Origin: Chryseobacterium gleum
Lineage (GTDB): Bacteria; Bacteroidota; Bacteroidia; Flavobacteriales_D; UBA2798
NCBI GenBank assembly: GCA_945865695.1
Contig: CAMBFX010000002.1
Span: 1-52,512, forward strand
Reading direction: 5' to 3'
Length of the DNA stretch: 52,512 nt
The translations under genes were made by a program, and so were the position numbers. Of this stretch, positions 10,977 through 34,762 are shown piece after piece. Each line of letters begins with the position of its first letter. Positions within the stretch are counted from its first letter, which is position 1. The notes under the pieces were generated by a model that was not told where the DNA came from, did no database searches, and saw only the letters and a list, made by a program, of their open reading frames with translations.

Positions 10977-12764
10977 TTGCGCAACAAGTTTACCTTAATT
11001 TTTATTTTATGTTTTTTTTCTAGTTTTTCAGCCTTTGCACAGGAGGATGAAGAAACGATTAAAGATACGCTTCAATTAAAGCCGCTTTTTAATCCCGATA
11101 CTCTTTCGGGTGATAAAAAGGAGAAAGAAGTTGAAAAAGGAAAAGACACTTCTGGAAAGCTTAGCAAAGTAAAAGAACATGTTACTATTGGTGGTGGAAT
11201 AGGAATTTCTACAGCATTCTATTCTTCATTTGGCGCACCAGCACAACGAGATCCATTCTATTGGCAAGTTTCTGGTTCATTAGATCTAACTATTGGACAA
11301 GTTTCACTTCCTTTTTCAGGCACACTCAATCAACAAGACCGAAGTTTTACACAGCCATTTAACCAATATGGAGTTAGTCCAAAATATAAATGGATAACCG
11401 CACATTTAGGTTATCGTTCATTGCGTTTTTCAGAGTATTCATTAAGCGGAAATCAATTTTTGGGAGTTGGATTAGAATTAGCTCCAGATAAATCATTTGT
11501 AAAAGGAAAATTAGTTTATGGCCGTTTTTCAAAAGCAGTAGATGGATACTATACCGATGGTCAAGTTACTGGTGTGCCAAGTTTTGAAAGATGGGGTATG
11601 GGTTTTCAGGTGGAATTAGGAAAACCAAAACGACATGTAGGCGTTCATGCCTTCAAAGCTAAAGATGATAGAAATTCAATTACTTCTTTTGCGAACGATG
11701 TAACTATCAAACCAGCAGAAAATTTAATTTTTGGTTTATCAACAGCAATGGAAGTTTCTAAGAAATTAAGTTTTAATGGTGAGATAAATTTTAGTGCTTA
11801 TACGCGAGATATTCGAGCGGATGAAACAGTTTTAGAAGGTTACACTTATATCAATAATTTAGGTTCACTTTTCTACGCTAATTCTACTTCCACTTTCAAT
11901 AAAGCTTTAAAAGCAGACTTAAGTTATACCGAAAAAAAATATAAAGTAGGTTTAGCCTATCGTAGAGTAGACCCTGATTATTTAAGTATGGGTTCTGTTT
12001 ACTTAAATAATGATTTTGAAGATATTCAAGCGCAAACTTCATTTAAAGCGATTAAAAATAAAATGAGTGTTAGTTTATCGGGTGGTTTGCAACGAAACAA
12101 CCTTAATAATGATAAATCAACAGAAATGTTGAGATTGATCTCTTCTATTTCTACCACCTATATTATCAATCAACATTGGACGGCAATGGTGAATTTCTCT
12201 AATTTCAATACCGAAAGTCAAATGCAAGTCGTAAATTCTCTAGATACGATGCGATTTGCTCAAGTTACCAAAAATGCTTCATCCCAAATAATGTATAATA
12301 AAGTTTTTACGAAAGTGAGAATAGCTTCTGGAATTTCGGGTAATTATCAAAATGCAAAAATTTTCCAAAATGATACATTGAATGTTACTTCCAGTTCTAA
12401 ATTGTTAAATGCTAATTATTCTTTTCAGTTAGGATTATTGAAATCAGGAATAAATATTACTGCAAATATTGGTGGAGCAATGAATGTTACTGCTGACAAT
12501 GAAATTGCTACGTTAGGTCCAACAATTGCCATCAATAAAAGATTTGTTCATGGAAAATTAAGTTCTTCCGTTGCGGCTTCTACATTAAAATCCTTTATAA
12601 ATGGAGAGTCATTGGGTTATATTTTAAATTTAAAATGCAATAATAATTTCAGAATAAATCGTCATCATGCATTGACGAATACTGTTTCTTATATTGAAAA
12701 AGCTTCTAATAACACATCAGCGAAACAATTTATCGCTACAATTGGATATAACTATGTTTTTTAA
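10977..12764 (+). CDS. Outer-membrane beta-barrel-like protein (first gene of the operon)
   Basis: TTG start followed directly by signal peptide MRNKFTLIFILCFFSSFSAFA/Q. A K/E-rich linker is followed by ~500 aa of alternating-polarity short strands. The C-terminal residue is aromatic (...IGYNYVF), a typical OMP beta-signal. Confidence 0.7.
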   Translation: MRNKFTLIFILCFFSSFSAFAQEDEETIKDTLQLKPLFNPDTLSGDKKEKEVEKGKDTSGKLSKVKEHVTIGGGIGISTAFYSSFGAPAQRDPFYWQVSGSLDLTIGQVSLPFSGTLNQQDRSFTQPFNQYGVSPKYKWITAHLGYRSLRFSEYSLSGNQFLGVGLELAPDKSFVKGKLVYGRFSKAVDGYYTDGQVTGVPSFERWGMGFQVELGKPKRHVGVHAFKAKDDRNSITSFANDVTIKPAENLIFGLSTAMEVSKKLSFNGEINFSAYTRDIRADETVLEGYTYINNLGSLFYANSTSTFNKALKADLSYTEKKYKVGLAYRRVDPDYLSMGSVYLNNDFEDIQAQTSFKAIKNKMSVSLSGGLQRNNLNNDKSTEMLRLISSISTTYIINQHWTAMVNFSNFNTESQMQVVNSLDTMRFAQVTKNASSQIMYNKVFTKVRIASGISGNYQNAKIFQNDTLNVTSSSKLLNANYSFQLGLLKSGINITANIGGAMNVTADNEIATLGPTIAINKRFVHGKLSSSVAASTLKSFINGESLGYILNLKCNNNFRINRHHALTNTVSYIEKASNNTSAKQFIATIGYNYVF

Positions 12765-15700
12765 AAAAATGATACAAGCTTTTCTAAGGAGCATTGCAAT
12801 TCCAGCAATGGTGTTGATGCCATTAATTGGCCATTCTCAATTTATGCCGGTTGGTGTAAATGTGATTATGAACCCTCCTAATTCACCATTTATTTCTGAT
12901 TATTATAGTCTTGAATCAAATGCGTTTCAATCTTTCATCACCTTAAATGACTTAAATGAACCAACTTGGGATGTTCGTTTAGTAGTTACTATAGAAGGAC
13001 AAGGTTTGGTCATTGAAACCAAAAGATCATTTATACCATTACAGCCTATTTCGTTAATTGCAGGAGTTCCTGTCATCATTCAAGGTGCTGATTTGACAGA
13101 ATATATGAACGTTAATAATGTTAATCTTCAAGGAATAACTGCTGCTACTTTAAATCAAAACGGAAAGCTACCTGAAGGGCTGTATAATTTTTGCATTGAA
13201 GTTTTAGATTATAGAAGCGGTGTTCCTTTAAGTATAAAATCATGTGGAACTGCGTTTATTTTTTACGAAAATCCTCCTGTACTCTTAGTGCCTGAAAGCG
13301 AAACTGCTTTACAGCCTTCTGATCCGCAAAATATTTTCTTTCATTGGCAAATGGCTGGTGGAGCATCACCAACTATTGCTGCAACATCTCAGTATAAATT
13401 GTTCGTATATGAGTTGCAAGATGAAAATGAAAATCCATATTATGCTGTTCAAAATAGTAAAGCTTTATTAATTTACGAATCAGATTTTCAGCAAACCACC
13501 TCTCAAACAATTGATTTTGGTATGTCAAACTCGGCACCACTAACGCCTGGTAAAAGATATATTTATAGGGTAAGGGCTGTTGATGCGGATTTAAAAAATA
13601 TTTATAAAAACGATGGTTATAGCGAGTATGGTTGGTTTTTCTACGGTTATCCATCGGATGGAGTTTTAAATATTAGCGCTCCTTTGGATAAACATATTTA
13701 TACAAAAATAGAAAACAAGATATTCAATTGGACAACCAGCAATAAAGGAATCCCTGGTCAAGAATATGAGTATATGATTTTCTTTAAAGAGAAAAATATC
13801 GGCCAGACCAATGAGCAGGCAATGGAAAATAATCCAGAATGGTTATTAGTCAATCAACCTGCAACAACTTCAATGAACGGTGGCGATTTTCTATTAACAC
13901 AAGAGCTAGATCCAGGTCAAAATTATGTATGGCAAGTAAAAGCCATGACTGGAATTCAACAAGTGGCAGAAAGTCCAATTTATGAATTCTTTGCGCCTTC
14001 GGTGATGGATCAGTTTATGGCAGGAAATTTCCCGGTGAAAATTGTTACGATGAATGATTTTACCAAAGTGGGAAATAATTACACGAATGTTTCAGGTAAA
14101 GGAAGAATTCAATTATCGGAAGATCCATCTGATGTAATAGACGCTGATTTTACGAATATTCGTATTGATGATTTAGCAGGGACAATGATCATGACCCAAG
14201 GTACTTTTAATTTTGATCTTTCATCTCGAGAGCCCAATGAACTTGAACCTTTAGTTGCAGAAAATGGTGCTGCGAAATTTTATTATGAAAATGGAGTGGT
14301 GAACAGTCAAGGCGTAAAAATTAATGGGCATATTGAATGGCCTTTTCCTCACGCGACTACTTCAGGTGAATTAGAAAAATTAACCACTCAAGATGCATTA
14401 TTTACATTGAATTCTTCATTTAAATTGAATGGAGCAGCAACTTTAGGAGAAGCAAAAGATTTTAATTTATTGGAGCCTCATGAAATGGTAATCAAGTTGG
14501 ATGCAAATACTGAAATTAGTGTTTCATCTGATAAGTATAACCTTAAAATGAATGGAAACATTTTGGTTAGTGATGAAGTTCTTACAAGTAGTGGAACACC
14601 TTATTCTATTAAAATAATGCAGCAACCACAATTGTATTATTTCAATGCAAATAATTTATTGGTTTATAGTTCTAATTTCTTGAAGCCAATTCAAAATATG
14701 AATATTGGCTTTATGCCCAAATCAGCTGTAATCGATTTAAGTGAATCTACTTCTCCAGGTAAAAAAGAAAATGAGCCTTCTTGGAAAGGAATTTATTTCG
14801 AAGAATTCCAAGTGAGATTATTTCAATCAGAATTTGATGGAACTAATCAAGTTTTAATTCCGGGAAATATAGATTACCACGAAGATCAAACCATTCATGA
14901 TTTCTGGATTGCTAATCAAGGTTTGCATCTAAAATATGATTTCACTACCACCGAAACGGATGTATTCTTTAATAGATTTAGAACTACGATAGACGGTAAA
15001 ATTCGAATAGAAGACAATGAGGTTTCTAATTCTAATTTTAGAGGAAATATTAAAATCCCGGTTATTAGCGATCAAGATTTATTTGGATTTGAAATCCCAT
15101 TAAATACCCAAGGTTTACAATTAGGCTATTTATATGAAGATTTAAGTTTGCGTTCTATTGCGTTCAATCCTTTCGGAGGTGAAAATAGAATAGATGTAAC
15201 TATTAATCGTGCTGTCTTTGCAGATAATGAAAGATTGGATTTAGAAATAAATGCAGAAGTAGCCGCATTTGGATGTACCATAACTGGAATTAACGATTTT
15301 AGAATTTATGGTGATAATGTAATTGGTGTGGGAGGAAGAAACGGTTCTAAAAAATTAGATAATCGTGTTTCTGGTGAATACAACAATTACACCGTTTATA
15401 TCACAGATGTAGGTGCATCATTATTTAATGGAAATTTTGTTTTCTCCTATAAAGCCGAAATGGATATGGGTGAAGATGTGGTGGGTGCAGATGGACCACC
15501 AGTATTATCGGTATCTTCTATTTCACCAGCTGGCGATGATGTTGAATTACCTGTTTATTCAGTTTCTACTCCTCAACCTGAACCTGCTATTGCCGTTCCT
15601 ACAGATCCTGAAGCAGCCACAAGTCAAACACTTGTAGCTGTTGATTTATTTATAGCCATTAATAATTCAATTGTTGAATTAGAAGGTTATCTTAAAATTC

Positions 15701-18700
15701 GTGCCAACGATCCTGTTTGGGGAAATTCATTTTCAGGAGGAATAAATGGGAAAATCAAAGTTCCAACAGAAATCCAATGTGGAGCTAACATGATTATGGG
15801 TAACCGTGAAGGATTAAAGTTCTGGTATTTTGATGCATGGTTTAATGATACTCAAGGAATGGGATTGAAAGTGGGACCACTTTTCAATATTACTGCCATG
15901 GAAGGAAGAATTTACCATCACATGTCAATTCAAGATGGTCAATTTATGCCTGATGCAAATTTAGCTTTTGGTGGTGCTTTGTATCTGCAAATAATAGATC
16001 CTAGTGGCGGAAGAATGGTTGCTGCTGATATTGGAGCAGAATTGAAAGTTTATGAAGATGGTGAATTCACTATAGGAATGAAGGGTGATGTTGCAGTTTT
16101 AAATAAAACACAACGAACTGCTGGTCCTGCTGGATCTCTTTCAGCAGTTGGTGAAGCGGCGTTGGCAGAGGTAGTTGAATCAATTGGACCTCTTTCTCTA
16201 TCTGTTGAAGTTGGAGGCGGAACATTAACTGTAACTGCTGAAAGTTTGAAAAAAGGATCTCTAGATTATGCTAAAGGAGATATGAAAGTTGGATTTGATA
16301 TTGATGTTACAGCAAAGCCAGGGGTTGGTTTTAGCTTTGAAAAAGGGGGTAATGGATTTTCTATGAATGCTGATGCAAGCGGAGAATTTGGTCTTGGAGT
16401 AGCAGTTGATGGCGTAGAAGTTGGTATTGGTATTTCAGGCACGAGCGGTGGTTATTTAGATTTTGCATACGAAAGTTTTAAAGTGACTGCAGGTGTTAAT
16501 AGAACCACAAAAACAGGAAGTTTTGATTTTGATTATGATGGAAAAGGATTTGGAATTAACGTTGGAAAAACATCGGGGGATTTAAATTTACGACTTTCAC
16601 CAACGCGTAAATTCGAAGCTGGATTTAACTCAGCCGGTTCTGCTTATATCGGTCTACAATATGACGATAATATGTTTAGACTCGCTGGTGATAAAGTAAC
16701 CAAATCAGGTAGTCTAGAAGCCGCATTCGGTGAAATTGAGCTGTCATTGGCGGCCAATGCCCAAGAAGGTTCTGCTAGCGCAATTTTGAAAATGCCGAAT
16801 TTCTTATTGGATATTGGTGGTAAAAAAGGAAAAGGAGGAAACTTCAATCTAGCAACTTCAGATTTCTCACTTGATATCGAAGCCGATATTGAAGAAAAAT
16901 CGGGAGCGCTTGGTTTTTCTTTTGATGGAGGAAATAAAGCTTTTAGAGCCGAATTAGATGGCGGATCAACCGGGAAAATCAGTTTCAAGCATAATGAAAT
17001 TGAATTTGGAATCGGAGGAAATGCTGATGGTTCAGCTGGAAGTGTGATGTATAAAGATGGTTCGAATGAGTTTGAAGTAGCAGTTGACAAGAACGCAGGT
17101 ACAGGAGCTTTAACCTTATTAATCGATGGAAATGGAATTGAATCAGCGGTGGAGGCAGACACTGCTTATGTTTCTTTTAAATACGATAACTATTTATTTG
17201 GAGTAGGTGCAACACCAGCAGGAGCAGGAGCTATTTCTTTTTCTGATGGATCAACCTCTTTTGCTTTAGCAGGTAACCCAGATGAGAAATCGGGTTCATT
17301 CAATTTAGAATTTAACGGAAATAAAGTTGCATTAGCTACTAATCTAACTACTAAAAAACATTCATTCTTAGTTGAAGCAGGTGATGTATCTTTCAATGCA
17401 AAAAGTGAAGACAATAATTTTGAAGTAGGACTTGGTTACCAAAACCATGAGGTTAAATTATCAAAAGGTGGTTCTGCTGGAAGCACAGATGGTTCATCAG
17501 GAAGCGTTTCTTATACGGATGGAACTAACACTTTTGCTTTAGCTGCCGATCCAGACGCACGAACAGGAAGCCTTACCATTGATTTAAATGGAAATGGTGT
17601 AAAAACCGCAATCGATCCCGATTCTTCATTTGTTGAGTTCAAATATGAAGGATATGAATTTATCAGTGGTCTTTCTTCAAGTGGAAATGGGGTGGTAAAA
17701 TATTCACAACCGAATAATTCATTTGAGTTATCTGGAAATCCAACACAACAAAGAGGTGCGGTGGAGTTGAATATTGGTTCAAATAAATTAGCGGTTTCAA
17801 CGGATATCCCTGCTAAAACACACTCCATAGAAATTGCAACTTCTGAAGCGAAGTTTGTAGCAAGTACATCTCCTTCTACTAAAAATCTTTCTTTAGAATA
17901 TGGTAATTACGCTGTCTTCGCTAAAAAGAGCTCAGATGATTATGGAGTAGGTTTAACGATAAACGGCCGTTCTATAGAAGGAGGAATTGATAATAATATA
18001 AAATTCATCAATTATAAAGGCGATGGAGTTGAAATAGGAATCGCTTCCAATAAAATATCTTTAAAGAAAGGAACAAACTCTTTAGAAGTAACTGAAGAGG
18101 ATATTTTTATTGATGGTACATCTGTTCAAGATTTATTGGCAAATGCAACGGCAACTTATACTAAAACTATAGGAGGCTTAACTGCTACCATCGTATTAAA
18201 TGCAGGTGAATATTCAGTTGCCTTTTCATCAGGTGGTAATGGTGTAAAAGTAACAACCTCTGATTTTGCTAATGGTGAAGTTGAAGTTACTATTAATGGA
18301 ACGCCAGTTACTATTAGTAAGGATAACGAAAAGTATTCTCTTGCTGTTAATGATTATGAAGCCATATATGAGCCAGGAAACTTAACCCTTAAAAAAGGAG
18401 CTGATAGAAGTATAAATGTAACGGGTGATGCATTAGCAGTTGCTTTTGACGGATATAATGTTTCTGTTTCTGCGTCTGAATTGAAATACGATGATGGACA
18501 AAATTCAGGTTCATTATCAGCTGAAGGATTAGAATTAAAACGTGACGAATATGAATTATTCGTGAGCGAAGCAGAGTTTGGTTTAAAAATGGGTGCAACA
18601 AAAAGTTTGGAGTTAACTAAAACATCTATTGCTGTAAATTATGATGATTTCAAAGCTTCTTATACCCAAGGTGAATCAATTGAAGTAGGTTATGATGATT

Positions 18701-22452: not shown

Positions 22453-23553
22453 ATGAAAAAAATTATTTTTATGAGTTTTTCAATGTTGGTATTGGTGAAA
22501 ATCACCAATGCTCAAGTTGGAATTGGAAATGCAACGCCAAATCTAGGAAGTATTTTGGATTTGACTAATTCAAACGACAAGGCATTAATTCTGCCAACAT
22601 CAACGCCAATACCAACCTCTGTTGGAACATTTACTGTGTCAGGAATGATGATGTATTTTAACGATAAAATATTTCTGAAAACAAGCACTGGTGTTAACGT
22701 GCTTTCACCTTGGATTTATAGTGGTGTTCCCGCCAATGGAATCTTTAGTGAAGTAGGTTTACCTATTGGTATTGGCATTGCTCCTTTACTAAACTCTTCT
22801 GCTATTCTAACTATTGCTGATGCAACAAGTGAAGTTACTGTTACTACTTCTACGGCTTCTGTTGTTATAGGTGACAATGATTTTAATGCCACTCATATGT
22901 TAATCGACAAAGACGAATTGTTGGTCAAAACAAATGCAAATACAGTAGGTACTTTGAAATTGCAAGAAGCAAATGGAGGTACAGTCCAGGTTGGAGAAAA
23001 TTTAACTAATCAATCTAATCTAAATGTTTTCGGAAAAATTCAACAAAATGGAAGAGACTTAGTTCCTGTTGGATCTATTATGCTTTGGTATGGACTATTT
23101 GATACTGACTATCCCATAGTAGCAGGAGTTACAAATACTAATTGGCATATATGTGATGGAACAAATGGCACACCTAATTTATCAAATGCATTCGTTGTAG
23201 GAATTGATATGTCTACCACTGGTAATAGTGCACCTTTAACCAACAACGGCCAATCAATGCTTAAAACAATTGACATAGCTAATCTACCGGTTCATACACA
23301 TACAATCGATCATGGGCATGGTGTAACAGACTTACAGCATAGCCATACTACTCAAATGGGAGATAATGTTGGTAGTGGGCAACCTGATGATGCAACTGGA
23401 AGTAATGGAGGAAATGCTACTTCTAATGCATCTTCTTCAAATGTTACTGTGAATGATCTTGTCGGTGGAATATCTGGTTTTACTGGATTAGGAACGCAAT
23501 TGAATATTACCCCTGCAGCGAGTCGTTTAGCTTACATTATGAAAATAAATTAA
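22453..23553 (+). CDS. Secreted phage tail-collar domain protein (MdpB-like), paralog 1
   Basis: Signal peptide MKKIIFMSFSMLVLVKITNA/Q. The C-terminal half carries PVGSIMLWYG...WHICDG..GTPNLSNAFVVG...ANLPVHTHTIDHGHGVTDLQHSHT...LAYIMKI, which is the tail-collar / microcystin-dependent-protein pattern. Confidence 0.8.
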   Translation: MKKIIFMSFSMLVLVKITNAQVGIGNATPNLGSILDLTNSNDKALILPTSTPIPTSVGTFTVSGMMMYFNDKIFLKTSTGVNVLSPWIYSGVPANGIFSEVGLPIGIGIAPLLNSSAILTIADATSEVTVTTSTASVVIGDNDFNATHMLIDKDELLVKTNANTVGTLKLQEANGGTVQVGENLTNQSNLNVFGKIQQNGRDLVPVGSIMLWYGLFDTDYPIVAGVTNTNWHICDGTNGTPNLSNAFVVGIDMSTTGNSAPLTNNGQSMLKTIDIANLPVHTHTIDHGHGVTDLQHSHTTQMGDNVGSGQPDDATGSNGGNATSNASSSNVTVNDLVGGISGFTGLGTQLNITPAASRLAYIMKIN

Positions 23554-24802: not shown

Positions 24803-27800
24803 ATGAAAAATTCTAATTGTAATACAGTAAAAACAAGACAACTTTCCTGCAGGAAACTGTTTCTTGGTATGCTGTTTTTGGTCTTGTCTTCATCAGTAAT
24901 GAATGCCCAACAACATGTGGTGCATACCGGAGAATTTATAACCATTAAACCATCAACGGATTTATATCTTTTTGGAGATTTTGATTCTAGAAGTACTGTG
25001 AATTCAGAGGTTCTTAATGAAGGTGTTTTTCATCTTCAAGGTAATTTGATTCACAATGGACAACAAAATTTATTTGGCGCCACGCCCAATACAGGAACCT
25101 TGCGATTCTTTGGTAATCCTGCAACAAACGCAACGATTACAGGTAATGCAGCTATAAATTTGAAAAATTTGACCATTGATCTTACTAGCAATATAACCGG
25201 TGGAGGAAATGTTTTATTGAGAAAAAACGGTGTAACTGCATTCGGGGATGTTAGTTTTACCAATGGTGGTTTTGAATTGGATACGTATGTTTTTAATTTA
25301 TTTCATGACGTATCGAGTATTTCTTCAGGTATAATTGCAGAAGCAAATGGAGCGAGACCTTATATCGGTGTATCTAATCCAATAGGTAAAATTTCTTTAC
25401 TCAATTATGCTTTTCCAAGTGGTAGCACTTATACCAATTTAAAAGGGATGGGTCTTAGTTTTACGCAAGATGATCCTTTGGGAGGAACTCCGGTGCTTCA
25501 TCGAACATTTGATACTTTAGATTGTGGTGATACGTATGGAAGTATTTTAAGAGCATTCCGAATAGAAGGCAATGCTAATCCCGCCCAGTTCTCTTCTACA
25601 AAAATAAAATTCCTAAACGGGTCCGAACTAGGAACTAATCCCAATGGAACCAATTTGAATGTTTTTGTGAGTGAAGATAATGGACAAGTTTGGCGCCCAA
25701 AAACAATAGATATAGGAACATCAACTCAGGTGAATAGCATAGGATCCACTGTATTTTCTACTTCTCCAAATTATACGGTTATTACAGCAGCTACACCTTG
25801 TGGTTCGGTTGTTCCTATCGAAATAAATCAAATCATTACAGGCGTTACTCCTAACGATACTTTATTTGATATTAACCAGGCTTATGCTTGTGATTTTGCA
25901 AATGTTTCTGCAAGATTGTATGCTGTAGGTGATGCCGGAGTTTATTTTGAATGGAGAAGTGACTTAAATAATTTTTATTCGGCTCAAACACCTCCCGGTT
26001 ATTTTGAAGCAACGGCTATAGGTAAATATTGGGTGAGAAGTACCAATATTCGCGGTTGTCGAGATTCCATGTCGATAGATGTTTATCTATCTTTACCTAG
26101 TAATTCAAATTTTACTACTAGTCCCTCTTCAGTATGTTTAGGTAGTTCTATTTCTTTTGCACCCAACACTACTGTAGCAGGTGCAACTTATAGTTGGGAT
26201 TTTGGTGATGGGAATACAGCTAATGCCACAAATACTTCTCATACGTATGCTGCTATTGGAGTTTATACGGTAACATTGAATGTAACCACCTTAGAAGGCT
26301 GTGTTGCCTCTTCAACTTCTTCCGTTACCATTAAAGATATTCCTAATCCTGATTTTATTGCTGGCTCTGCCTGTCCGGGTGCTGCCGTAAATTTTGATAA
26401 TAATAGTTCTGTTGTAGGTTTATTAGGTACAGTAGATTTGGATTGGAATTTTGGAGATGGAAATATAGGAAATTCACAGGGTAATCAAAATGGTTCTGGT
26501 GGAACAGGAGATGTTTCTCATGTATATGCAGCAGAAGGAACTTATTCGGTAACCTTAACTGCAACAGCAAATGGATGTACATCTGATCCATTTATAGCTA
26601 CCGTTACGGTTTATCCTGTTCCTACCACTTCTTTTACAATAAGCAATGCATGCGCTGGACAAAGTATCACCTTCACCAATTCATCTGATATTACAGATAA
26701 CTCCACCTTAACTTATGTTTGGGATTTCACTGGAGGAGGAGGACCAACTAGTAATACAACTAGTCCAGTTTATACCTATCCAGTTGCGGGAAATTACGCG
26801 GTTTCTTTAACGGCTACCAGTGTTAATGGATGTGTGACTACCATTAACCAACTCATCACGATTTATCAAAATCCTGTGGCAGCATTTTCTGTAACGAATG
26901 CTTGTGTAAATGATTCTGCTTCGTTCGCAGATATTACTCCAGAAATTGTTGGATCTACTCCTTATACTTATGCTTGGACATTTGGAGATGGTAATGTTGG
27001 ATCATTGCAAAACATATCGAATTTATATGCTGTGGCCGGCACTTATAATGTGGCAATGACCGTGACCACTGCTAATGGATGTGTTGGCTCCACAACCAAT
27101 AGTGTTACTATTTTTACAGGACCAAGCGTTTCGTTTTCTGCTTTGAGTGCTTGTGCAAATAGCCCTATAAATTTTATTAATACAACCTCCAATGCTACTT
27201 CTTATTTATGGAATTTTCCATCTTTAAGTTTAACCGCTACTTCACAAAATACCACTCAAACATTTCCTACAGATGGTACTTTCCCAGTGAATTTGACAGC
27301 AACATCTTCAAATGGTTGCCAAGGAACGTTCAATGGAAACATAACTGTTTTTGCGCTGCCTGTGGTTAATTTAGGATCTACCATTACCACTTGTGGAACC
27401 ACTTATACATTAGATGCAAATCCTGGAGGAGTAAATAATGGATGTAATTTTCAATGGGGAACAGGCGATATTACACCTCAATATGTTTGTACGTATGATG
27501 ATAATTTTAGTGTAACTGTTACCAGTGGAAACGGATGTGTTACTACAGATAACGTAGATGTAACTTTAAATGGAGTGGTTTTACCAACACTTGGACCGAA
27601 CGCTACATTTTGTGATATTGCAACATTAGATGCAGGATATCCAGGATCTACTTATACTTGGAGTACAACTGAAACGACACAGACCATTAATGTTACTGTT
27701 TCAGGAACTTATTCTGTAACAGTGATCGATCAAAACTCATGTACAGGTTCTAATTCAGTAACGATAACTATTGTTCCTGCTACGCCTGTTTCATTCGGTG

Positions 27801-29194
27801 CAGATATTACTGCTTGCTCTAACAATCCAGTAACATTGAATGCAGGTTTAGCATCTTCTTATTTATGGAGCGATGGATCTACCGGCTCTACATTATTAGT
27901 TCCGAGCTCAGGTTATTATTGGGTACAAAATACCAATGCAGGCGGATGTTCTTCCTCAGATACAGTTCAAGTGACCTATAATAATGCCCCAGTATTTACT
28001 TTAGGAGCTGACGCTACAGCATGTGATGCATTATTGTTGAATGAGTTTTTACCCAATAGCACTTATTTATGGAATGCATCTGCAACAACGCCTTCGTTTA
28101 ACGTTACCTCTTCGGGGACGTACACTTTAACGATTACGTCAACTTTAAATGGCTGTTCAGAAACTGATGCGATAATTGTTACTATCAATGATCTTCCAAT
28201 TGTAAACTTAGGAAATGATACTTCATTATGTAGCTATGCAACTGGAGTTATTGATGCTGGAAATACAGGTTCAACTTTTCAATGGAATAGTGGACAAACC
28301 ACTCAAACTATTTCAGTAGCTGCCACAGGAAATTATTTGGTTACTGTTACGGATGTTAATGGTTGCACCTCTTCTGATAATTTAAATGTTACCATGCTTC
28401 CATTGTTTTCAATTGAGTTAGGGCCCGACAAACAATTTTGTAATGGTTCAAGTATTTTATTAGATGCAGGATTAACCACCATAGGTAATACATATGTTTG
28501 GGAGGATGAAACAGGAATAATTGGAACCAACGCAACCTACTCTGTATTGGATACCGGTATGCATTACCTAACGGTTACAGACGCAAATACTTGCATTGCC
28601 GAAGATTCTGTGAATATTACCCCTTCTAATATTTCATTGTTTGCATTTTTCCTTGCAGATTCAGATATCATTCAGGGAGACGCTGTAGTATTCGTGAATT
28701 TATCTTATCCTCGTCCTTATACGTCACAGTGGTATATTGATAATACATTCATCACCAATGATTCAATGCCAACCTTCACATTCAATCAACCGGTAACGCC
28801 TCCATCAGATACCATTTATGTTAAACTAAAAGTGGATAATGTTTTTTGTCAATCAGAAATTACCAAACCAATTGTATTGAATTCTGCTTTTCAACCAACA
28901 CCTGGAACAGAAACTACTCCGGTTGATAATGGTTTATTTACAAGCATTAGAAATTCGAATCTATATCCAAATCCAAATAATGGAGTATTTAATTTCTACA
29001 TTGATTTAACTCAGGAATCACCTGCAGAAATATCAGTTTTTACAGTAACCGGCGCAATGGTTTACTCAGAGAAAAGAACCTTGTCTACAAATCTTCTAGC
29101 GTATGATTTCAGTCACCTTGAGAGAGGAATTTATTTCTTACGAGTAGGAATTTATAATGAATACAGAACGCACAAGTTTATAATTATTAGATAA
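24803..29194 (+). CDS. Large T9SS type-A cargo: unknown N-terminal domain, 5 PKD domains, 6 Cys-containing ~70-aa modules, type-A CTD
   Basis: The ATG at 24803 is preferred over the TTG at 24758; signal peptide ...LFLGMLFLVLSSSVMNA/Q. PKD signature W(D/N)FGDG...H.Y...G.Y.V.L appears 5 times. The C-terminus NLYPNPNNGVFNFYIDL...GIYFLRVGI...FIIIR is a Por-secretion type-A CTD. Confidence 0.85.
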   Translation: MKNSNCNTVKTRQLSCRKLFLGMLFLVLSSSVMNAQQHVVHTGEFITIKPSTDLYLFGDFDSRSTVNSEVLNEGVFHLQGNLIHNGQQNLFGATPNTGTLRFFGNPATNATITGNAAINLKNLTIDLTSNITGGGNVLLRKNGVTAFGDVSFTNGGFELDTYVFNLFHDVSSISSGIIAEANGARPYIGVSNPIGKISLLNYAFPSGSTYTNLKGMGLSFTQDDPLGGTPVLHRTFDTLDCGDTYGSILRAFRIEGNANPAQFSSTKIKFLNGSELGTNPNGTNLNVFVSEDNGQVWRPKTIDIGTSTQVNSIGSTVFSTSPNYTVITAATPCGSVVPIEINQIITGVTPNDTLFDINQAYACDFANVSARLYAVGDAGVYFEWRSDLNNFYSAQTPPGYFEATAIGKYWVRSTNIRGCRDSMSIDVYLSLPSNSNFTTSPSSVCLGSSISFAPNTTVAGATYSWDFGDGNTANATNTSHTYAAIGVYTVTLNVTTLEGCVASSTSSVTIKDIPNPDFIAGSACPGAAVNFDNNSSVVGLLGTVDLDWNFGDGNIGNSQGNQNGSGGTGDVSHVYAAEGTYSVTLTATANGCTSDPFIATVTVYPVPTTSFTISNACAGQSITFTNSSDITDNSTLTYVWDFTGGGGPTSNTTSPVYTYPVAGNYAVSLTATSVNGCVTTINQLITIYQNPVAAFSVTNACVNDSASFADITPEIVGSTPYTYAWTFGDGNVGSLQNISNLYAVAGTYNVAMTVTTANGCVGSTTNSVTIFTGPSVSFSALSACANSPINFINTTSNATSYLWNFPSLSLTATSQNTTQTFPTDGTFPVNLTATSSNGCQGTFNGNITVFALPVVNLGSTITTCGTTYTLDANPGGVNNGCNFQWGTGDITPQYVCTYDDNFSVTVTSGNGCVTTDNVDVTLNGVVLPTLGPNATFCDIATLDAGYPGSTYTWSTTETTQTINVTVSGTYSVTVIDQNSCTGSNSVTITIVPATPVSFGADITACSNNPVTLNAGLASSYLWSDGSTGSTLLVPSSGYYWVQNTNAGGCSSSDTVQVTYNNAPVFTLGADATACDALLLNEFLPNSTYLWNASATTPSFNVTSSGTYTLTITSTLNGCSETDAIIVTINDLPIVNLGNDTSLCSYATGVIDAGNTGSTFQWNSGQTTQTISVAATGNYLVTVTDVNGCTSSDNLNVTMLPLFSIELGPDKQFCNGSSILLDAGLTTIGNTYVWEDETGIIGTNATYSVLDTGMHYLTVTDANTCIAEDSVNITPSNISLFAFFLADSDIIQGDAVVFVNLSYPRPYTSQWYIDNTFITNDSMPTFTFNQPVTPPSDTIYVKLKVDNVFCQSEITKPIVLNSAFQPTPGTETTPVDNGLFTSIRNSNLYPNPNNGVFNFYIDLTQESPAEISVFTVTGAMVYSEKRTLSTNLLAYDFSHLERGIYFLRVGIYNEYRTHKFIIIR

Positions 29195-29195
29195 A

Positions 29196-32100
29196 ATGAA
29201 ATACGTTTTTTTAACCATATTGATTGTTTTTACAGCTAACCTGAATAAGATTCATTCGCAAGCTTGTTTGAATAATTACCAGTATCGTGTTCCAATTTCG
29301 GTTCCTAATCTCAATGCCTCCGTATTGACTAATTTTCAAGTAAAAGTATTAGTGAATACATCAGCGCTGATTACTGCTGGAAAATTACGAATTGATGGAG
29401 GAGATGTTCGTTTTACTGATGGTAGCGGAACCAATCTTTCTTATTGGTTTGACCCTGCAACTTTCAATTTTCCCGCTACTGAGTATTGGGTGAAAGTGAA
29501 TAATTTGGCGCTTGGAGCAAATACCATTTATTTATTTTATGGCAATGCTACTGTTCCAGTAGTTGCGAGTGGAGATGCAACTTTTGAATACTTTGATGAA
29601 TTTTCAGGAACCGTTTTAGATAATTCTAAATGGAATCGTTGCGGAGATATTACCAATGTAACTTTAGCAGGTGGAATTATTAATTTTAGCTCAAATAATT
29701 CAGCACCTAATTTTAAAGATGGAATTATTACTTCACTTCAAACTTTTGGCAATAATGTAATTGTTGAAACTGATGTGGTTTCTGTCAATCAAGGAAAAGC
29801 TATTCTTGGATTTATGACAGCAGCTGAAGAAGGGTATGCTACCACTTTTGAAAAAACGACTGGTGTGGATATTTTTAAATTATCCAGAATTACTACTGAT
29901 GCGGTTACTTGTCAAATTCTAACCGATATTTTACCAACTTCTGCTGCAGGAACACTTTCTGGAATATGGTCATTTAGTTGGCCAACTGCTTCTAGTCAAA
30001 CTATCGGCTGGGCGAGTGGTGTTTCTTCGTTTACCTATGCAGATGCAATACATTCGGGTGTTTCGGGTAATCAGAAAAAAATTATTTTAGGATCGCATAT
30101 CAATGCTTCTACCAATACAGGTACATTAGCTATTGATTGGTTACGTGTAAGAAAATTAGCCATAGATCCAATTACGGTTTTAGGGGCTGAGCAAGAATAT
30201 CCTGTTTCTCCTAATCCAACCAATACTGGCCCTTATTGTAATGGCTCTACCATTCAATTTAACTCCACTTCTTATTCTGGAGCTGTTTATACCTGGAAAG
30301 ATCCTTCTAATGGTACTTTTTCTACGATATCAAATCCTACTATTTCGGGAAGTACAATTGGAAATACAGGAACGTATACATTAGAAATTGCTGTACCGGG
30401 ATGTGCACCTGTAGTGACCACTACTTTTGTGGATGTTTCTAATTCTTCGAATGCAGGAGTTACTTCTGGAACAACTACTGTTTGTTCAGGAACGAATGGA
30501 GGAACTGTTTCCGTTGCAGGAATTACAGGCAGTGTTGTAAGATGGGAAATGGCTAATAATATTGCTGGACCTTGGTTTACCATTTCTAGTTCAGCTACGA
30601 GTATGACTTATGCCAATTTGCTTCAAACTACTTTGTTTCGTCCGATAGTAAAAACAACGGCATGTCCTGAGGCAGTAGGAACAGCGGCTGTGATTACAGT
30701 AGATAATGCAACAGTTGGAGGTTTTGTCATAGGAGGAAATTCGGTTTGTGCAGGAACCAATAGCGGAACAGTGAATCTTGTTTTCCAATCAGGAACTGTA
30801 ACTAAATGGCAGTTTTCTATTGATGGCGGTTTAAGTTGGACAGATATCGTTTCGAATAGTACTTCTTATTCATTTACTAATATTTCTACAACCACATTAT
30901 ACAGAGCAGAAGTTAAAAATGGATCTTGTCCGGCACAATTTTCTGCAGCGGCAACGGTGATTGTAAATCCCCTTCCTGTTCCTGGTTTTTCGGTAGCAAC
31001 GGTTTGTGAAAGTGTAGCATCGAATTTTGTGAATACAACCACCATCGCTTCTGGTTCTATCGCCAATTATCAATGGGATTTTGGAAACAGCAGCAGTAGT
31101 ATCTCTGCCAACCCAATTTATATTTATCCCAACTACGGAATTTATTTCGTGCAATTGACTGCTGTTTCAAGTGCAGGTTGTACTGCCTCTACAAGTTCAT
31201 TGGTTACTGTCAATGCGGCTCCTGATGTTTTCTTTAATGCAGCTTCTGTTTGTCAAGGTTCACCAACCAACTTTCAAGCCATCGCTTTCGTTCCAGGCGG
31301 AGGATCAATCTCCAATTATTTTTGGGACCATGATGATGCTTCTACATCCACAGTTCCGATACATTCTTATACGTATTCTTCCACTGGGGTTTACGATGTA
31401 CTTTTAGTTGCAACTAGCAATAATGGCTGTATTGATTCGGTGCGTAATGCAGTAGAAGTAGCCGCGCCTGTTTCAGTGAGTTTTATTGCAGATAGTGTTT
31501 GTTTAGGAACGGCTATTAATTTCATCAATACTTCCGCCACTAATTCTCCAAGTGTATCTTATACTTGGGATTTCGGTAATGGAAATAATTCCACTTTGCT
31601 TAGTCCGATTTATAGTTATCCTGTTATTGGAACTTATACCGTTACTCTTCAAGCACAAGTAGTGGGATCTCCATCTGCATGCGTTTCTTCTACACAAAGG
31701 ACTGTTGTGATTTATGAAGTGCCCAATCCTAATTTTACATTGGCAAATGTTTGCTTGATCGATTCAGCTTCATTTACAAATCTTACTTTTTATACAGGAA
31801 ATCCAACTGATCTTTCTTATTCATGGAATTTCGGTGATGCCACCACAGAAACCTTAACGGATCCTTTTCATACCTATGTCTCACCCGGAAATTTTAATGT
31901 ACAATTGACTGCTTCCACTATCGATGGATGCTCTGCCACCAATACACAATTGATTTCTATTCATCCAATGCCAACGGCTAATTTTGCATTCACAGATGTT
32001 TGTTTGAATACAAATATGAATTTCACTTCTACCGCAACAGTGAGCAGCGGAACACTAACACATGCTTGGGATTTTGATGATGCTTCCACTTCACCCGTAC

Positions 32101-33212
32101 AAAATCCAATTCATTTGTATGGAGCAGATGGAACTTATGATGTTGAATTGATAGTTACCACCAATAATAATTGCCGTGATACCATTGTAAAAACAGTAAC
32201 CGTTTTTCCGCGTCCATTTGTAGATTTCATCAATACACCCGTTTGTGACGGACAACCGAGCACCTTCACCGAATCTACTTCTATTTCTGGTGGAACAGTG
32301 GTTTCTTTCGACTGGGATTATGGTGATGGTTCATCCGCCAATGGAAACTCAACTGTTTATCAATATTTGAATCCGGGAACGTATAATGTGACGCTAACTT
32401 CAACGTCAAATTTCGGTTGCACGCATGATACAACTAAAGCGGTAATTGTAGATGCAGTTCCTGTTCCTAATTTCACTGCTGCTGATGCTTGTTTCGGTGC
32501 CGCGAATCAATTTACCAATACATCCTCTGTATTAGGAAATGGGCCATTAACGCATTTATGGAGATTTGGCGATGGCGGAACTTCTGTTCTTACTTCTCCC
32601 GGAAATATTTATCCAGCTCCAGGATTTTATAATGTAACATTAGTTGTTACCACTGGTGCAGGTTGTGTAGATTCAATAATCAAAGTAACCGAAGTTTATG
32701 CTTTGCCAACAGTGAACGCAGGAAATGATACAACCATTTCAAAAGGAAATGAAGTACAATTAAACGGTTATGATCCTGCTGCTATTTCCTATTCATGGAC
32801 TCCAGTTGCTACATTAGATGTATCGGCGATACCCAATCCTATTGCACGACCAACGGATACTACCACTTATACATTGACGTTAACGGATTTTTTTGGATGT
32901 CAAAATACAGATGATATGACCATTAATGTATTGAATGATTTTAAAATTTTAATTCATAACGTAATCACGCCGGATGGAAACGGACAAAACGATGTTTGGT
33001 ACATTACCAATATTGATTTTTATCCTGAAGCTACGGTGCAATTATTTAATCGTTGGGGTGAATTGATTTACGAAACATTAAATTATCAAAATGATTGGAA
33101 TGGTGTAGTTGGAACCGATCAATTACCTGACGGAACTTACTATTACATTATCACTTTCCCGGATTCAGATATTCATTACAAAGGAGCAGTTACTTTATTA
33201 CGTAATAATTAA
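29196..33212 (+). CDS. Large T9SS type-B cargo: DUF2341-like plus LamG-like N-terminus, Ig-like repeats, 7 PKD domains, gliding-motility-associated (type-B) CTD
   Basis: Signal peptide ...VFTANLNKIHS/Q. YRVPISV...GGDVRFTDGSGTNLSYWFD is DUF2341-like. There are 7 WDFG(N/D)G-type PKD units. The C-terminus NVITPDGNGQNDVWYITNIDFYPEATVQLFNRWGELIYE...LPDGTYYYII is the type-B CTD signature. Confidence 0.9.
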   Translation: MKYVFLTILIVFTANLNKIHSQACLNNYQYRVPISVPNLNASVLTNFQVKVLVNTSALITAGKLRIDGGDVRFTDGSGTNLSYWFDPATFNFPATEYWVKVNNLALGANTIYLFYGNATVPVVASGDATFEYFDEFSGTVLDNSKWNRCGDITNVTLAGGIINFSSNNSAPNFKDGIITSLQTFGNNVIVETDVVSVNQGKAILGFMTAAEEGYATTFEKTTGVDIFKLSRITTDAVTCQILTDILPTSAAGTLSGIWSFSWPTASSQTIGWASGVSSFTYADAIHSGVSGNQKKIILGSHINASTNTGTLAIDWLRVRKLAIDPITVLGAEQEYPVSPNPTNTGPYCNGSTIQFNSTSYSGAVYTWKDPSNGTFSTISNPTISGSTIGNTGTYTLEIAVPGCAPVVTTTFVDVSNSSNAGVTSGTTTVCSGTNGGTVSVAGITGSVVRWEMANNIAGPWFTISSSATSMTYANLLQTTLFRPIVKTTACPEAVGTAAVITVDNATVGGFVIGGNSVCAGTNSGTVNLVFQSGTVTKWQFSIDGGLSWTDIVSNSTSYSFTNISTTTLYRAEVKNGSCPAQFSAAATVIVNPLPVPGFSVATVCESVASNFVNTTTIASGSIANYQWDFGNSSSSISANPIYIYPNYGIYFVQLTAVSSAGCTASTSSLVTVNAAPDVFFNAASVCQGSPTNFQAIAFVPGGGSISNYFWDHDDASTSTVPIHSYTYSSTGVYDVLLVATSNNGCIDSVRNAVEVAAPVSVSFIADSVCLGTAINFINTSATNSPSVSYTWDFGNGNNSTLLSPIYSYPVIGTYTVTLQAQVVGSPSACVSSTQRTVVIYEVPNPNFTLANVCLIDSASFTNLTFYTGNPTDLSYSWNFGDATTETLTDPFHTYVSPGNFNVQLTASTIDGCSATNTQLISIHPMPTANFAFTDVCLNTNMNFTSTATVSSGTLTHAWDFDDASTSPVQNPIHLYGADGTYDVELIVTTNNNCRDTIVKTVTVFPRPFVDFINTPVCDGQPSTFTESTSISGGTVVSFDWDYGDGSSANGNSTVYQYLNPGTYNVTLTSTSNFGCTHDTTKAVIVDAVPVPNFTAADACFGAANQFTNTSSVLGNGPLTHLWRFGDGGTSVLTSPGNIYPAPGFYNVTLVVTTGAGCVDSIIKVTEVYALPTVNAGNDTTISKGNEVQLNGYDPAAISYSWTPVATLDVSAIPNPIARPTDTTTYTLTLTDFFGCQNTDDMTINVLNDFKILIHNVITPDGNGQNDVWYITNIDFYPEATVQLFNRWGELIYETLNYQNDWNGVVGTDQLPDGTYYYIITFPDSDIHYKGAVTLLRNN

Positions 33213-33217: not shown

Positions 33218-34762
33218 ATGATAAAAGTAATTCACTCCACTATTAAAAAATCAAATAAGATGTTTAGGAAATCTCTTTCGATAGCATTATTTAGCGGTAT
33301 TTCCATTATCGGAATTTCTCAACAAACGGGTTCTTTAGATCATTATTTAGTGAATCAATATTTCATCAATCCTGCAGGAGCGGGAATGAATGGAACTTCC
33401 ATTTTTATGGATTACCGAAAGCAATGGTCAGGATTTACAGGAGCACCAGAGACACAAATTCTAGCAGTGGATGGAAATATTAAACGTGAATCGATGGGAT
33501 TAGGTTTGATGATTCAAAATGATCAAGTAAATGTTTTGGGTTCAACTTCTGTGATGGCTACTTATGCTTATCGAATAAAGTTTGCCGAACAAAATTATTT
33601 ACGTTTTGGTTTATCCTTAGGATTAATTCAAAACCGAATTATTTTTAGTCGTGTGATTGCACAAGATCCTTCTGAATTGCAAATTTTTCAGAACGATCAA
33701 AACAGCTCTACTTTTGATGGAAACGCAGGATTTATTTATGAAATTAAAAATCTTCAAGTAGGTTTTTCGGTTTCTCAATTATTAGGTGGACGTTATTACT
33801 ACGAGAATAATTTCCAAAGCAATACTTTGAATTTTTCAAACATTCGTCATTTTGTGGCCAATGCACAATATCGTTTTGATATTAAAAAAGGAAAATGGGG
33901 AGTGATGCCTTCTGTAATTTTAAGAACATCTCAAGGAATTGCCCCTTTGTATGAAGGAGGAGTAACGGGCTTTTACAAAAAATATGCATGGGCAACTTTT
34001 AGGTATTCCAACAAAGTAGGAATGTCTGCTTCTATTGGAGGAATCATTGCTAAAAATGTTGTTGCTGGTTATTCGTATTCGTTTAATAATAATGCCATGC
34101 GCAATTATAATCAAGGCACGCATGATATTATTCTTGGATTTAGAATTGGGGGAGGTAAAAAAGGCGGAAGTGATATAGATAGTAAGGAATTCGAAGAATT
34201 GAAAAATAAGAGCAATGAACTTTTTGAAAAAACAGATTACTTAAAAAGTGAGAATGAACAATTGCGTAAAGATTTAGAAGCGCAAAAACGAGCGATGAAA
34301 AATTCGGTTTATGGATTGGATAGCTTGAAAAAAATTATGGAAGGTGATATGGATGCTTTGCAGAAATTAATGAAGGAGAACGAAGAGAAGATGAAGAATT
34401 ACAAAGGAAGTGATAATAATGGAACGGGTAATAATGGAACGGGTTCAAACGGTACTGGTTCAAATGGAACTGTAAAAGTGAACGCAGATGGAGTAGAGGA
34501 TGTTCAGGATGGAAAAGTATACATCGTTATTGGTGCGGTAACGAAATTAGAAAACGCCAAGAAATATCAACAGATGATTAAACGTGAATATAATGAAGAA
34601 ACACAGATTGTGCAGGATGACAATCAATTTTGGTATTTCATTTACACGAAGTCTTTCGATAAGAAAGAAGATGCCGTTAAAGAACGCATGCGTGCAGATA
34701 AAGTGGATGTGAAGCAAATTTACATCGGTGATGCTTGGTATTATATTTCCAAGAAGAAGTAA
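33218..34762 (+). CDS. PorP/SprF-family T9SS outer-membrane protein fused to a coiled coil, an NGTGS low-complexity linker and a SPOR-like domain
   Basis: PorP/SprF N-terminal signature ...YLVNQYFINPAGAGMNGTSIFMDYRKQWSGFTGAPETQ. The alternative start M15 (33260) gives a cleaner signal peptide. The C-terminus VYIVIGAVTKLENAKKYQQMIKRE...FWYFIYTKSFDKKEDAV fits the SPOR beta-alpha-beta-beta pattern. Confidence 0.85.
   Translation: MIKVIHSTIKKSNKMFRKSLSIALFSGISIIGISQQTGSLDHYLVNQYFINPAGAGMNGTSIFMDYRKQWSGFTGAPETQILAVDGNIKRESMGLGLMIQNDQVNVLGSTSVMATYAYRIKFAEQNYLRFGLSLGLIQNRIIFSRVIAQDPSELQIFQNDQNSSTFDGNAGFIYEIKNLQVGFSVSQLLGGRYYYENNFQSNTLNFSNIRHFVANAQYRFDIKKGKWGVMPSVILRTSQGIAPLYEGGVTGFYKKYAWATFRYSNKVGMSASIGGIIAKNVVAGYSYSFNNNAMRNYNQGTHDIILGFRIGGGKKGGSDIDSKEFEELKNKSNELFEKTDYLKSENEQLRKDLEAQKRAMKNSVYGLDSLKKIMEGDMDALQKLMKENEEKMKNYKGSDNNGTGNNGTGSNGTGSNGTVKVNADGVEDVQDGKVYIVIGAVTKLENAKKYQQMIKREYNEETQIVQDDNQFWYFIYTKSFDKKEDAVKERMRADKVDVKQIYIGDAWYYISKKK

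Follow-up and report, generated by a model that had tools for sequence, protein, structure and literature searches.

An eight-gene locus of Chryseobacterium gleum as a candidate wall-anchored envelope apparatus built around a TANFOR-type giant protein

The first 52,512 nucleotides (nt) of contig CAMBFX010000002.1 of Chryseobacterium gleum (assembly GCA_945865695.1), hereafter the window, carry eight tightly packed plus-strand genes at positions 10977-34762, which we refer to in order as g1 to g8. Sequence comparison identifies the product of the second gene, g2, a protein of 2,566 amino acids (aa), as a divergent relative of TANFOR-class polymorphic toxins from Bacteroidetes, and the gene that precedes it encodes a large predicted outer-membrane β-barrel whose family recurs beside such giants. 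With moderate confidence, we propose that the operon encodes a Bacteroidota-specific envelope apparatus built around the TANFOR-type giant, in the form of a wall-anchored fibre whose giant component would be exported or held by the g1 barrel.

The giant g2 (12754-20454) is a Sec-exported protein in which the open reading frame (ORF) and searches of Pfam and NCBIfam gave no C-terminal domain (CTD) of the T9SS (type IX secretion system). Its signal peptide, MFFKKMIQAFLRSIAIPAMVLMPLIGHS/Q, was read directly from the sequence and is cleavable. It is followed by a TANFOR-like domain at residues ~30-299 (12841-13650), with invariant LPEG, PP, GKxY and NDGYSE motifs, and by the remainder of a conserved N-terminal module reaching to residue ~1060 (13651-15933), in which weak fn3 and Ig matches mark Fn3/Ig-like stretches. 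This N-module is kept at 30-33% identity even in family members of 1,600 aa, and in BLAST it had no similarity to g3, g4, g6 or g7. Searches of Pfam, NCBIfam, PHROGs and PDB sequences with g2 returned nothing usable. The relationship to TANFOR proteins was found in direct comparisons of the N-termini: hhalign aligned those of the g2 family with those of toxin-type proteins over 274 columns (probability 100%, E 3.4e-58), and BLAST linked the g2-type and TANFOR-type N-termini with an E value of 2e-36. These alignments identify the first ~300 residues of g2 as a putative homolog of the N-terminal trafficking region of TANFOR-class toxins.

Supporting this assignment is the fact that distant relatives of g2, which have only the first 300-470 aa in common with it, are polymorphic toxins. 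One of them (P0276) has a C-terminal Toxin-deaminase domain (51.9 bits) and is followed by an 89-aa ORF. At a Flavobacterium psychrophilum locus (L094; GCA_900186385.1, 754-13075), a PKD protein gene is followed by a g1-family barrel gene (profile E 1e-110 to the g1 family) and this directly by two tandem TANFOR-type genes, whose products of 1,210 and 1,563 aa share 92% identity up to residue 480 and diverge from there on, with an ORF of ~130 aa behind each gene. The gene pair of this fish pathogen has the pattern that marks arrays of polymorphic toxin and immunity genes, and a fragment of a Y1 transposase lies nearby. We then carried out a reciprocal metagenome scan anchored on four toxin-type N-termini, counting 27 loci with full flanks. 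A g1-family barrel was present at 20 of the 27 and a g3-like Fn3 protein at 23, and PKD genes were kept as well; no collar, PorP, type B cargo or g2-type C-terminal module was found within 10 kb at these toxin-type loci.

The TANFOR class of Bacteroidetes polymorphic toxins was described by Jana, Salomon and Bosis (2020; PMC7073777), who left its export route open. In that study genes for Fn3, PKD, SprB and T9SS-CTD proteins were enriched around TANFOR genes, more than 95% of the TANFOR genomes had a T9SS, and Collar and SPOR were not enriched in the neighbourhood test. A Salibacter halophilus locus in the supplementary table of the same study lists a 561-aa protein, TANFOR, FN3 and Collar, in that order. 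The features by which the class was recognized are partly present here: g2 has the Sec signal peptide, and g3, g6 and g7 provide the Fn3, PKD and T9SS-CTD neighbourhood, while the variable C-terminal toxin with a downstream immunity gene is missing from g2. No toxin family was detected in g2 with Pfam or NCBIfam, and no small immunity-like ORF lies behind it, g3 following after 7 nt. The barrel would have been invisible to the published domain analysis because no domain model for it exists, and within the library covered by our full-text search no subsequent paper dealt with TANFOR in substance or resolved how the proteins are exported. The initial annotation of this DNA, made from the sequence alone, could match the gene set to no described system. 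This is too strong and only partly right: the giant's class and its Fn3/PKD/CTD neighbourhood were published in 2020, and what lies outside the published TANFOR description is the barrel, the PorP-SPOR carrier and the collar proteins.

The g1 gene (10977-12764), which starts with TTG, encodes a signal peptide, then ~45 charged, disordered residues at the N-terminal side, and a barrel that ends in a ...GYNYVF β-signal. The AlphaFold2 model has 26 strand elements (pLDDT 77.8) and so backs the earlier annotation of an outer-membrane barrel, here of ~26 strands. There was no usable match to g1 in Pfam, NCBIfam, PHROGs or PDB sequences. A Foldseek search with the model retrieved only large barrels (MtrB, PapC/FimD, LptD and TonB-dependent transporters) at TM-scores of at most 0.48, and the likeness to PapC/FimD (TM ≤ 0.43) is confined to the barrel. 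Since these are generic large barrels, we claim homology to none of them. The g1 family comprises 2,766 clusters at 50% identity, has no curated model and occurs in the genomes of at least 574 species, among which we inspected Flavobacteriales, Cytophagales and one metagenome-assembled genome labelled Sphingobacteriales. Judged from the structural model, then, g1 is one of the large outer-membrane barrels, and its sizeable family is uncurated. Several members have fused LysM domains, such as P0370, with three at its N-terminus, and P0367, which has Big_9/cadherin-like domains and two LysM domains at its C-terminal side.

An argument for a common function of the eight genes is their conservation as a set. 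At loci L005-L008, L090 and L091 the same order recurs, namely barrel, giant, FN3 protein, one to three collar proteins, type A cargo, DUF2341/type B cargo and PorP-SPOR carrier. The full eight-family set is kept at ~30-40% identity (L090, L008), with the collar proteins down to 31% and the barrel to ~30%. The families also occur together in shuffled orders. Marinoscillum and Imperialibacter have type B cargo, PorP-SPOR, barrel and giant; L065-L069 have barrel, FN3, collar, type A cargo and PorP-SPOR; and L092 has collar, barrel, giant and FN3. At least one partner gene was present at all 45 genome loci with 8 kb or more of flank on both sides. This wide recurrence, with the order conserved at distant loci, upholds the earlier proposal that the eight genes are one functional set, which would not have survived if they co-occurred only here. 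The barrel is the gene common to all variants, and the three genes most often found together are those for the barrel, the TANFOR-type giant and the Fn3 protein. Loci of another kind, class IV (Cyclobacteriaceae L080-L082, L088, L043 and L062), hold only a type B cargo gene (FG-GAP/Ig_7/CHU_C), a PorP-OmpA carrier gene and the barrel. Additional conserved genes were observed in the Cytophagales variants (L035, 17011-17928; L064, 11575-13632 and 18776-19702): a HEAT-repeat protein of ~305 aa is encoded after the giant, and in Imperialibacter a gene for a 685-aa BamB-like β-propeller lies between barrel and giant.

The remainder of g2 is expected to form the fibre proper. Behind the N-module lies a Gly/Ser/Asp-rich shaft of variable length (16051-19755), delineated by composition, AlphaFold2 modelling and amphipathicity, and then a conserved C-terminal β-module at residues 2372-2566 (19867-20451), with a GFGGGGW motif, a conserved Cys and six long amphipathic strands. 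Homologs of g2 range from 1,606 to 3,147 aa, and their shaft varies by ~1,500 aa and can be almost absent, a finding in keeping with the long stalk first suggested for the giant. In the model of residues 1467-2566 (pLDDT 81), residues 1471-2334 form 93 consecutive short amphipathic β-strands with turns of 2-4 residues between them, followed by a 12-strand C-module. The amphipathicity of the shaft exceeds that of 500 of 500 shuffles, and one strand face is hydrophobic. The best matches of the model among the predicted viral structures of BFVD were phage tail-fibre, gp5-like hub and neck-appendage proteins, which suggests that the modelled region is a fibre shaft and would be trimeric in reality. 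Foldseek searches of the shaft against the PDB gave ApoB100, teneurin, TcsL and OspA at query-normalised TM ≤ 0.15, with LptD also among the matches, and we read these model-based matches as indicating a "long β-meander" only. An RHS/YD-shell identity was ruled out for the shaft, there being no RHS repeat matches. The C-module is conserved across the family (22-57% identity) and has a weak match to DUF2715, an outer-membrane barrel family; neither a toxin nor a T9SS CTD was recognisable in it with Pfam or NCBIfam. Two further observations on g2 and its homologs may be recorded here. The BFVD entry A0A6J7XI16, a 217-aa caudoviral protein, matched an unspecified part of the g2 model with a target TM-score of 0.72 and a root-mean-square deviation of 2.1 Å over 176 columns. 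Pentapeptide repeats (PF00805/PF13599) occur in the variable centre of homologs P0244, P0254, P0256, P0262 and P0264, in whose shaft a different β-solenoid appears to have been inserted.

The g3 gene (20462-22450) encodes a 662-aa Fn3-like array protein that is a near-constant partner of the barrel and TANFOR-type genes. Its description as an "FN3 array" is drawn from weak matches only (the NCBIfam CbhB Fn3 region, E 4e-15, and fn3 in orthologs), and PHROGs gave one weak match. The next two genes, g4 (22453-23553) and its paralog g5 (23622-24752), encode Sec-exported proteins of phage-tail-fibre type, each a system-specific N-domain, at residues 21-~175 of g4, with a head, which in g4 is of collar/gp10_C type with three HxH motifs. 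These motifs resemble the metal-binding ones of trimeric phage fibres. Both genes had initially been taken for tail-collar proteins; this holds for g5, which matches Pfam Collar (PF07484, 29.1 bits) and phrog_1800 (E 5e-27), while g4 is not detected by Pfam Collar and is placed with tail fibres by phrog_8469 (E 4e-11) and PDB 6ov6 (E 2e-4). Gp10_C is present in orthologs of g4 and g5. Three or more HxH motifs were found in 68 of 69 collar homologs (three in 56, four in 12), and two in the remaining one. The N-domains of g4 and g5 are 89% identical and their heads 44% identical, a mosaic seen likewise at L008, and related loci have one to three copies. These values agree with the earlier suggestion of interchangeable tips, but the pattern does not extend to the family as a whole: we compared 71 sequences (g4, g5 and the 69 homologs) and rejected the idea that heads are generally more variable than N-domains, which is true only within some loci. 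Our literature searches brought up nothing relevant that links tail collars to the T9SS, Bacteroidetes or gliding, or PorP to SPOR.

The last three genes connect the locus to the T9SS. The g6 product (24803-29194) has a signal peptide, an array of five PKD domains and, at its extreme C-terminus, a type A CTD (about 28961-29185; Por_Secre_tail PF18962, 46.5 bits; TIGR04183, 39.5 bits). In the g7 product (29196-33212) a DUF2341 domain (29394-29636) is accompanied by seven PKD domains, and the T9SS signal is a CTD of type B (32949-33194; CHU_C, 83.8 bits; TIGR04131, 61.2 bits). Starting 5 nt after g7, g8 (33218-34762) encodes a PorP/SprF carrier (33320-34141; PorP_SprF, 187 bits; TIGR03519, 193 bits), a coiled coil (~34175-34402), an Asn/Gly/Thr linker and a SPOR-like domain (34511-34690). 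A type B cargo gene followed by its cognate PorP/SprF gene, as first annotated, is thus supported. The PorP/SprF-SPOR fusion also stands: the SPOR match is marginal in g8 itself (17.1 bits when the whole protein is searched, 21.4 bits with its C-terminus alone, at a cut-off of 21) and clear in its orthologs at L065 (22.9 bits) and L064 (31.5 bits), with OmpA instead at L080 (75.9 bits). At every locus with a carrier within reach, the PorP carrier is fused to SPOR or OmpA. The g8 product contains no cysteine and hence lacks the Cys-X-Cys of the mobile SprF subclass, which lies in SprF's periplasmic C-terminal tail and bonds GldK, coupling it to the moving gliding track (PMC12635249). Static complexes of type B cargo, carrier and a PorE-like protein, with a peptidoglycan-binding partner, have been proposed (PMC9143113, PMC12618676). 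With its predicted peptidoglycan-binding domain, g8 fits a wall-anchored static carrier, in agreement with this published idea.

The layout of the genes is that of a single predicted transcription unit. From ORF listing and start-codon inspection, the seven junctions between g1 and g8 are -11, +7, +2, +68, +50, +1 and +5 nt, reproducing exactly the values reported initially; if g8 started at its second Met (33260), the g7/g8 gap would be 47 nt. Upstream lies an AT-rich leader of 441 nt (10536-10976, plus strand; 23.4% GC, compared with 35.8% for the operon) with a Bacteroidetes-type -7 box, TAAATTTG, at 10943-10950. Both the leader and the box are present as annotated, but in the window as a whole TAnnTTTG shows no enrichment (67 copies where 78 are expected), and because of this the call of TAAATTTG as the operon promoter is tentative, being plausible and without statistical backing. 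Neither of the two longer gaps (68 and 50 nt) contains a plus-strand TAnnTTTG copy. The unit is closed by a bidirectional intrinsic terminator at 34873-34905, which a simple terminator scan overlooks, its stem running into A/T tracts, and which folding confirms (-21.1 kcal/mol, z = -4.5; 0 of 200 shuffles fold as well), as had been noted. Within the unit, terminator-like sites occur at chance frequency, and none lies in an intergenic gap. All eight N-termini, read without a predictor, have an n-region, an h-region and a cleavage site followed by Gln, again as annotated. This Gln at +1 is expected rather than special because of the Bacteroidetes "Q-rule" for signal peptidase I substrates. The flanking genes are housekeeping genes (citrate synthase, DnaB, Fic, dihydroorotase), and searches of the window, leader included, for tRNAs and Rfam families found none.

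The pairing of barrel and giant in both fibre-type and toxin-type loci points to g1 as the missing export or anchoring partner of TANFOR giants. In the apparatus that we propose, g1 would be the dedicated exporter of g2, its outer-membrane socket, or both, in the manner of CdiB and CdiA in two-partner secretion. The giant, toxin-less here, would form the fibre, with a β-hairpin shaft of at least 45 nm, probably trimeric like a phage fibre, and the C-module; g3 would be a structural partner. Trimeric, phage-tail-fibre-like tips could be provided by g4 and g5, whose shared N-domain would dock and whose two heads would bind different ligands. The T9SS would deliver g7 to g8, which would staple the assembly to the cell wall, and g6 would be a second T9SS-delivered component with a PKD array. 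The result would be a static, non-gliding organelle for adhesion or target recognition. The recurrence of peptidoglycan-binding domains in the system (SPOR or OmpA on PorP, LysM on some barrels) supports a load-bearing anchored structure, and the closest Foldseek matches of g1 (MtrB, ushers and LptD) are, by analogy, barrels that hold or pass protein.

Several observations weigh against this proposal. TIGR02542 did not match the N-terminus of g2 even at E ≤ 10, and in the relatives of g2 that it matches over nearly the whole model (P0276, 28.8 bits; P0284, 23.8 bits; P0270, of the g2 family, 20.8 bits) all scores are under the curated cut-off of 67 bits. The link of g2-g5 to g1 and to export rests on gene neighbourhood only, and POTRA, plug and usher domains are all missing from g1, which therefore fits none of the known translocation mechanisms. 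The shaft was predicted as a monomer, with a pTM of 0.47 and very low TM-scores in the PDB, the trimer being conjectural, and across the collar family N-domains and heads are about equally diverged (46% and 43%). No giant, FN3 or collar gene was found within 10 kb at the class IV loci, and the role of the barrel may be tied to T9SS carriers with no need for a TANFOR-type protein. The eight genes may represent two or three cooperating modules instead of one machine, because the toxin-type loci have neither collars nor PorP and the class IV loci have neither giant, FN3 nor collar genes. The single system initially envisaged is therefore retained as a conserved set, but as a modular one, of which the toxin-type and class IV loci hold subsets. 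The parts first given to the FN3 array (stalk) and to the PKD proteins (partners) stay conjectural, as does a position of g2-g5 on the cell surface. Lastly, T9SS export was proposed for the TANFOR class by its authors (PMC7073777) and could still apply.

The last point leads to the alternative that survives best, which we nevertheless consider unlikely: all secreted components, the giant included, would leave through the T9SS, the TANFOR region would be a non-canonical signal or a hitch-hiking domain, and the barrel would be only an anchor or accessory carrier of the PorP/PorV kind. The published association of TANFOR genes with SprB, PKD and CTD genes, and with T9SS genomes (PMC7073777), is consistent with this. 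So is the position of the barrel directly after PorP-SPOR or PorP-OmpA and type B cargo genes in loci of classes II and IV, the latter without a giant; the barrel is at least as tightly tied to T9SS carriers as to the giant. However, g2-g5 have neither a type A nor a type B CTD, and the toxin-type loci have the barrel but no PorP or type B cargo gene within 10 kb. Furthermore, PorP/PorV-type shuttles have 14 strands, and a 26-strand barrel is far bigger. If the giant indeed bypasses the T9SS, g1-family barrels, TANFOR-type N-domains and probably the Fn3 partner would make up a previously unrecognised T9SS-independent pathway of outer-membrane export and display, an idea that we put forward only tentatively. 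Such a pathway would deliver polymorphic toxins in some lineages and wall-anchored giant fibres with phage-type tips here.

The toxin relatives of g2 also raise the question of whether the giant is itself a contact-dependent weapon, with the C-module as a membrane-inserting, pore-forming or translocation effector and the collar tips recognising target cells. That polymorphic toxins accompanied by immunity-like ORFs are found among the relatives sharing its N-terminus, that long amphipathic β-hairpins, a Gly-rich motif and the weak DUF2715 match characterise the C-module, and that phage-type receptor-binding heads suit target-cell recognition would all agree with such a role. The C-module is conserved, however, rather than polymorphic (22-57% identity), the FN3 gene follows g2 where an immunity-like ORF would be expected, and Pfam and NCBIfam detect no toxin family in g2, all of which make a weapon decidedly unlikely in our view.

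We likewise find it improbable that two independent units, one of barrel, giant, FN3 and collar genes and the other of T9SS cargo and PorP carrier genes, are merely adjacent. The modules do occur apart in some genomes (toxin-type loci lacking PorP, class IV lacking the giant), and the largest gaps (68 and 50 nt) are near the border of the two halves. These gaps contain neither a terminator nor a -7 box, however, the association survives both the shuffling of gene order and divergence down to ~30% identity, and barrel-linked PorP carriers always have a peptidoglycan-binding fusion.

The hydrophobic strand face of g2, the ApoB100 β-belt and LptD among the Foldseek matches and the frequent peptidoglycan-binding domains of the system might be taken as signs of a conduit that carries lipid or protein across the periplasm, as TamA/TamB or LptD/LptA do, in which the g2 sheet would be a hydrophobic groove. 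We considered this conduit and rejected it as very improbable: the signal peptide of g2 is cleavable and leaves no N-terminal membrane anchor, no AsmA, TamB or DUF490 match was found in g2 with Pfam or NCBIfam, and a shaft that varies by ~1,500 aa and is nearly absent in some homologs is a misfit with a fixed periplasmic width, as are phage-type receptor-binding heads and T9SS surface cargo as partners of such a conduit. A phage-derived block, either a prophage remnant or a tailocin-like particle, is barely credible and was likewise rejected, despite the tail-fibre matches of g4 and g5 and the resemblance of the g2 shaft to predicted phage fibres, given that sheath, tube, baseplate, capsid, terminase and integrase genes are absent, PHROGs matches are limited to g4, g5 and weakly g3, all eight products have Sec signal peptides, the flanks are housekeeping genes (DnaB, citrate synthase, dihydroorotase), and the barrel family is spread over at least 574 species genomes, with conserved neighbourhoods at the sampled Flavobacteriales and Cytophagales loci.

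The class of the giant (TANFOR) and the type B/PorP logic were already known. Four features are new: the barrel family and its coupling to TANFOR-type proteins, a conserved fibre locus of eight families, the fusion of PorP to SPOR or OmpA, and the architecture of the shaft. A barrel family of ~2,800 clusters at 50% identity that is coupled to TANFOR offers a concrete candidate gene for the open export question. The locus also represents a toxin-less fibre branch of the TANFOR family, joined with phage-type receptor-binding proteins and a fused, peptidoglycan-anchored carrier, and it bears on the attachment of environmental Flavobacteriales and Cytophagales to particles, algae and prey. With no curated models for the barrel, the giant core and the Fn3 partner, the system is unseen by comparative studies based on domain annotation.

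Elsewhere in the window, the 735-aa product of minus-strand gene 37853-40060 joins a GIY-YIG nuclease to a Schlafen-group-3-like helicase (PF09848, E 1.8e-61) and a Peptidase_S24 domain. It looks like a defence-type or SOS-linked module, and its gene lies ~1.2 kb from a Fic adenylyltransferase gene (35565-36692, minus strand). A 969-aa T9SS cargo protein encoded at 3080-5989 (minus strand) is outside the operon and unrelated to it, a type A CTD being its only recognisable feature. The co-directional minus-strand genes at 43261-51249 may form an operon of the Bat (aerotolerance) type, as a BatA N-terminal domain is encoded by the ORF at their low-coordinate end (43261-45309).

Among known systems, two-partner secretion (TpsB-TpsA; CdiB-CdiA) provides an instructive parallel. 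In both cases the gene for an outer-membrane barrel adjoins that for a giant, β-rich filament protein exported by Sec, a targeting role would suit the N-terminal region conserved in the g2 family, and relatives of g2 have C-terminal polymorphic toxins followed by small ORFs. Unlike TpsB proteins, g1 is not Omp85-like: it has ~26 strands rather than 16, no POTRA and no ShlB/Bac_surface_Ag match, and g2 has neither a TPS domain nor FHA β-helix repeats. With no Pfam or NCBIfam match and a disordered N-terminus in g1, and no TPS or haemagglutination-domain match in g2, the pair falls outside type Vb secretion, and the resemblance is best regarded as a functional analogy. MtrB, the PapC/FimD ushers and LptD are similar to g1 in strand number and overall barrel size, but at TM ≤ 0.48 and ~9% identity, and g1 lacks their plug, usher and N-terminal β-jellyroll domains. 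A chaperone gene is absent, and no usher or PapD Pfam match was found in any of the eight products, which sets the locus apart from chaperone-usher systems. The cleavable signal peptide and the absence of AsmA, TamB and DUF490 matches (Pfam, NCBIfam) similarly separate g2 from AsmA/TamB-like proteins.

The parallels with phage fibres, TANFOR toxins and T9SS type B pairs are closer. The heads of g4 and g5 match phage tail and short tail fibres (PF07484, PF21939; PDB 6ov6), with which they also share HxH motifs and a modular build of N-terminal docking part and variable head, but they are encoded in a cellular operon, have Sec signal peptides and have an N-domain specific to the present system. 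Like TANFOR toxins, g2 is a large Sec-exported protein with a homologous N-terminal region of ~300 aa followed by Fn3-like domains, its gene has Fn3, PKD and T9SS-CTD genes nearby, and the order is the same as at the Salibacter halophilus locus. It differs in its long variable shaft and conserved C-module, in place of a polymorphic toxin and immunity gene, and in the failure of TIGR02542, and the barrel, collar proteins and PorP-SPOR carrier fall outside the published description. Finally, like SprB/SprF, Fjoh_3952/3951/3950 and PG1035/PorP/PorE, the g7/g8 pair combines a type B CTD protein with a PorP/SprF gene directly downstream and an associated peptidoglycan-binding function. Here, however, the peptidoglycan-binding domain is fused to the carrier rather than residing on a separate PorE-like protein, the track-coupling Cys-X-Cys motif of SprF is missing from g8, and the pair belongs to a wider conserved gene set that includes another barrel.

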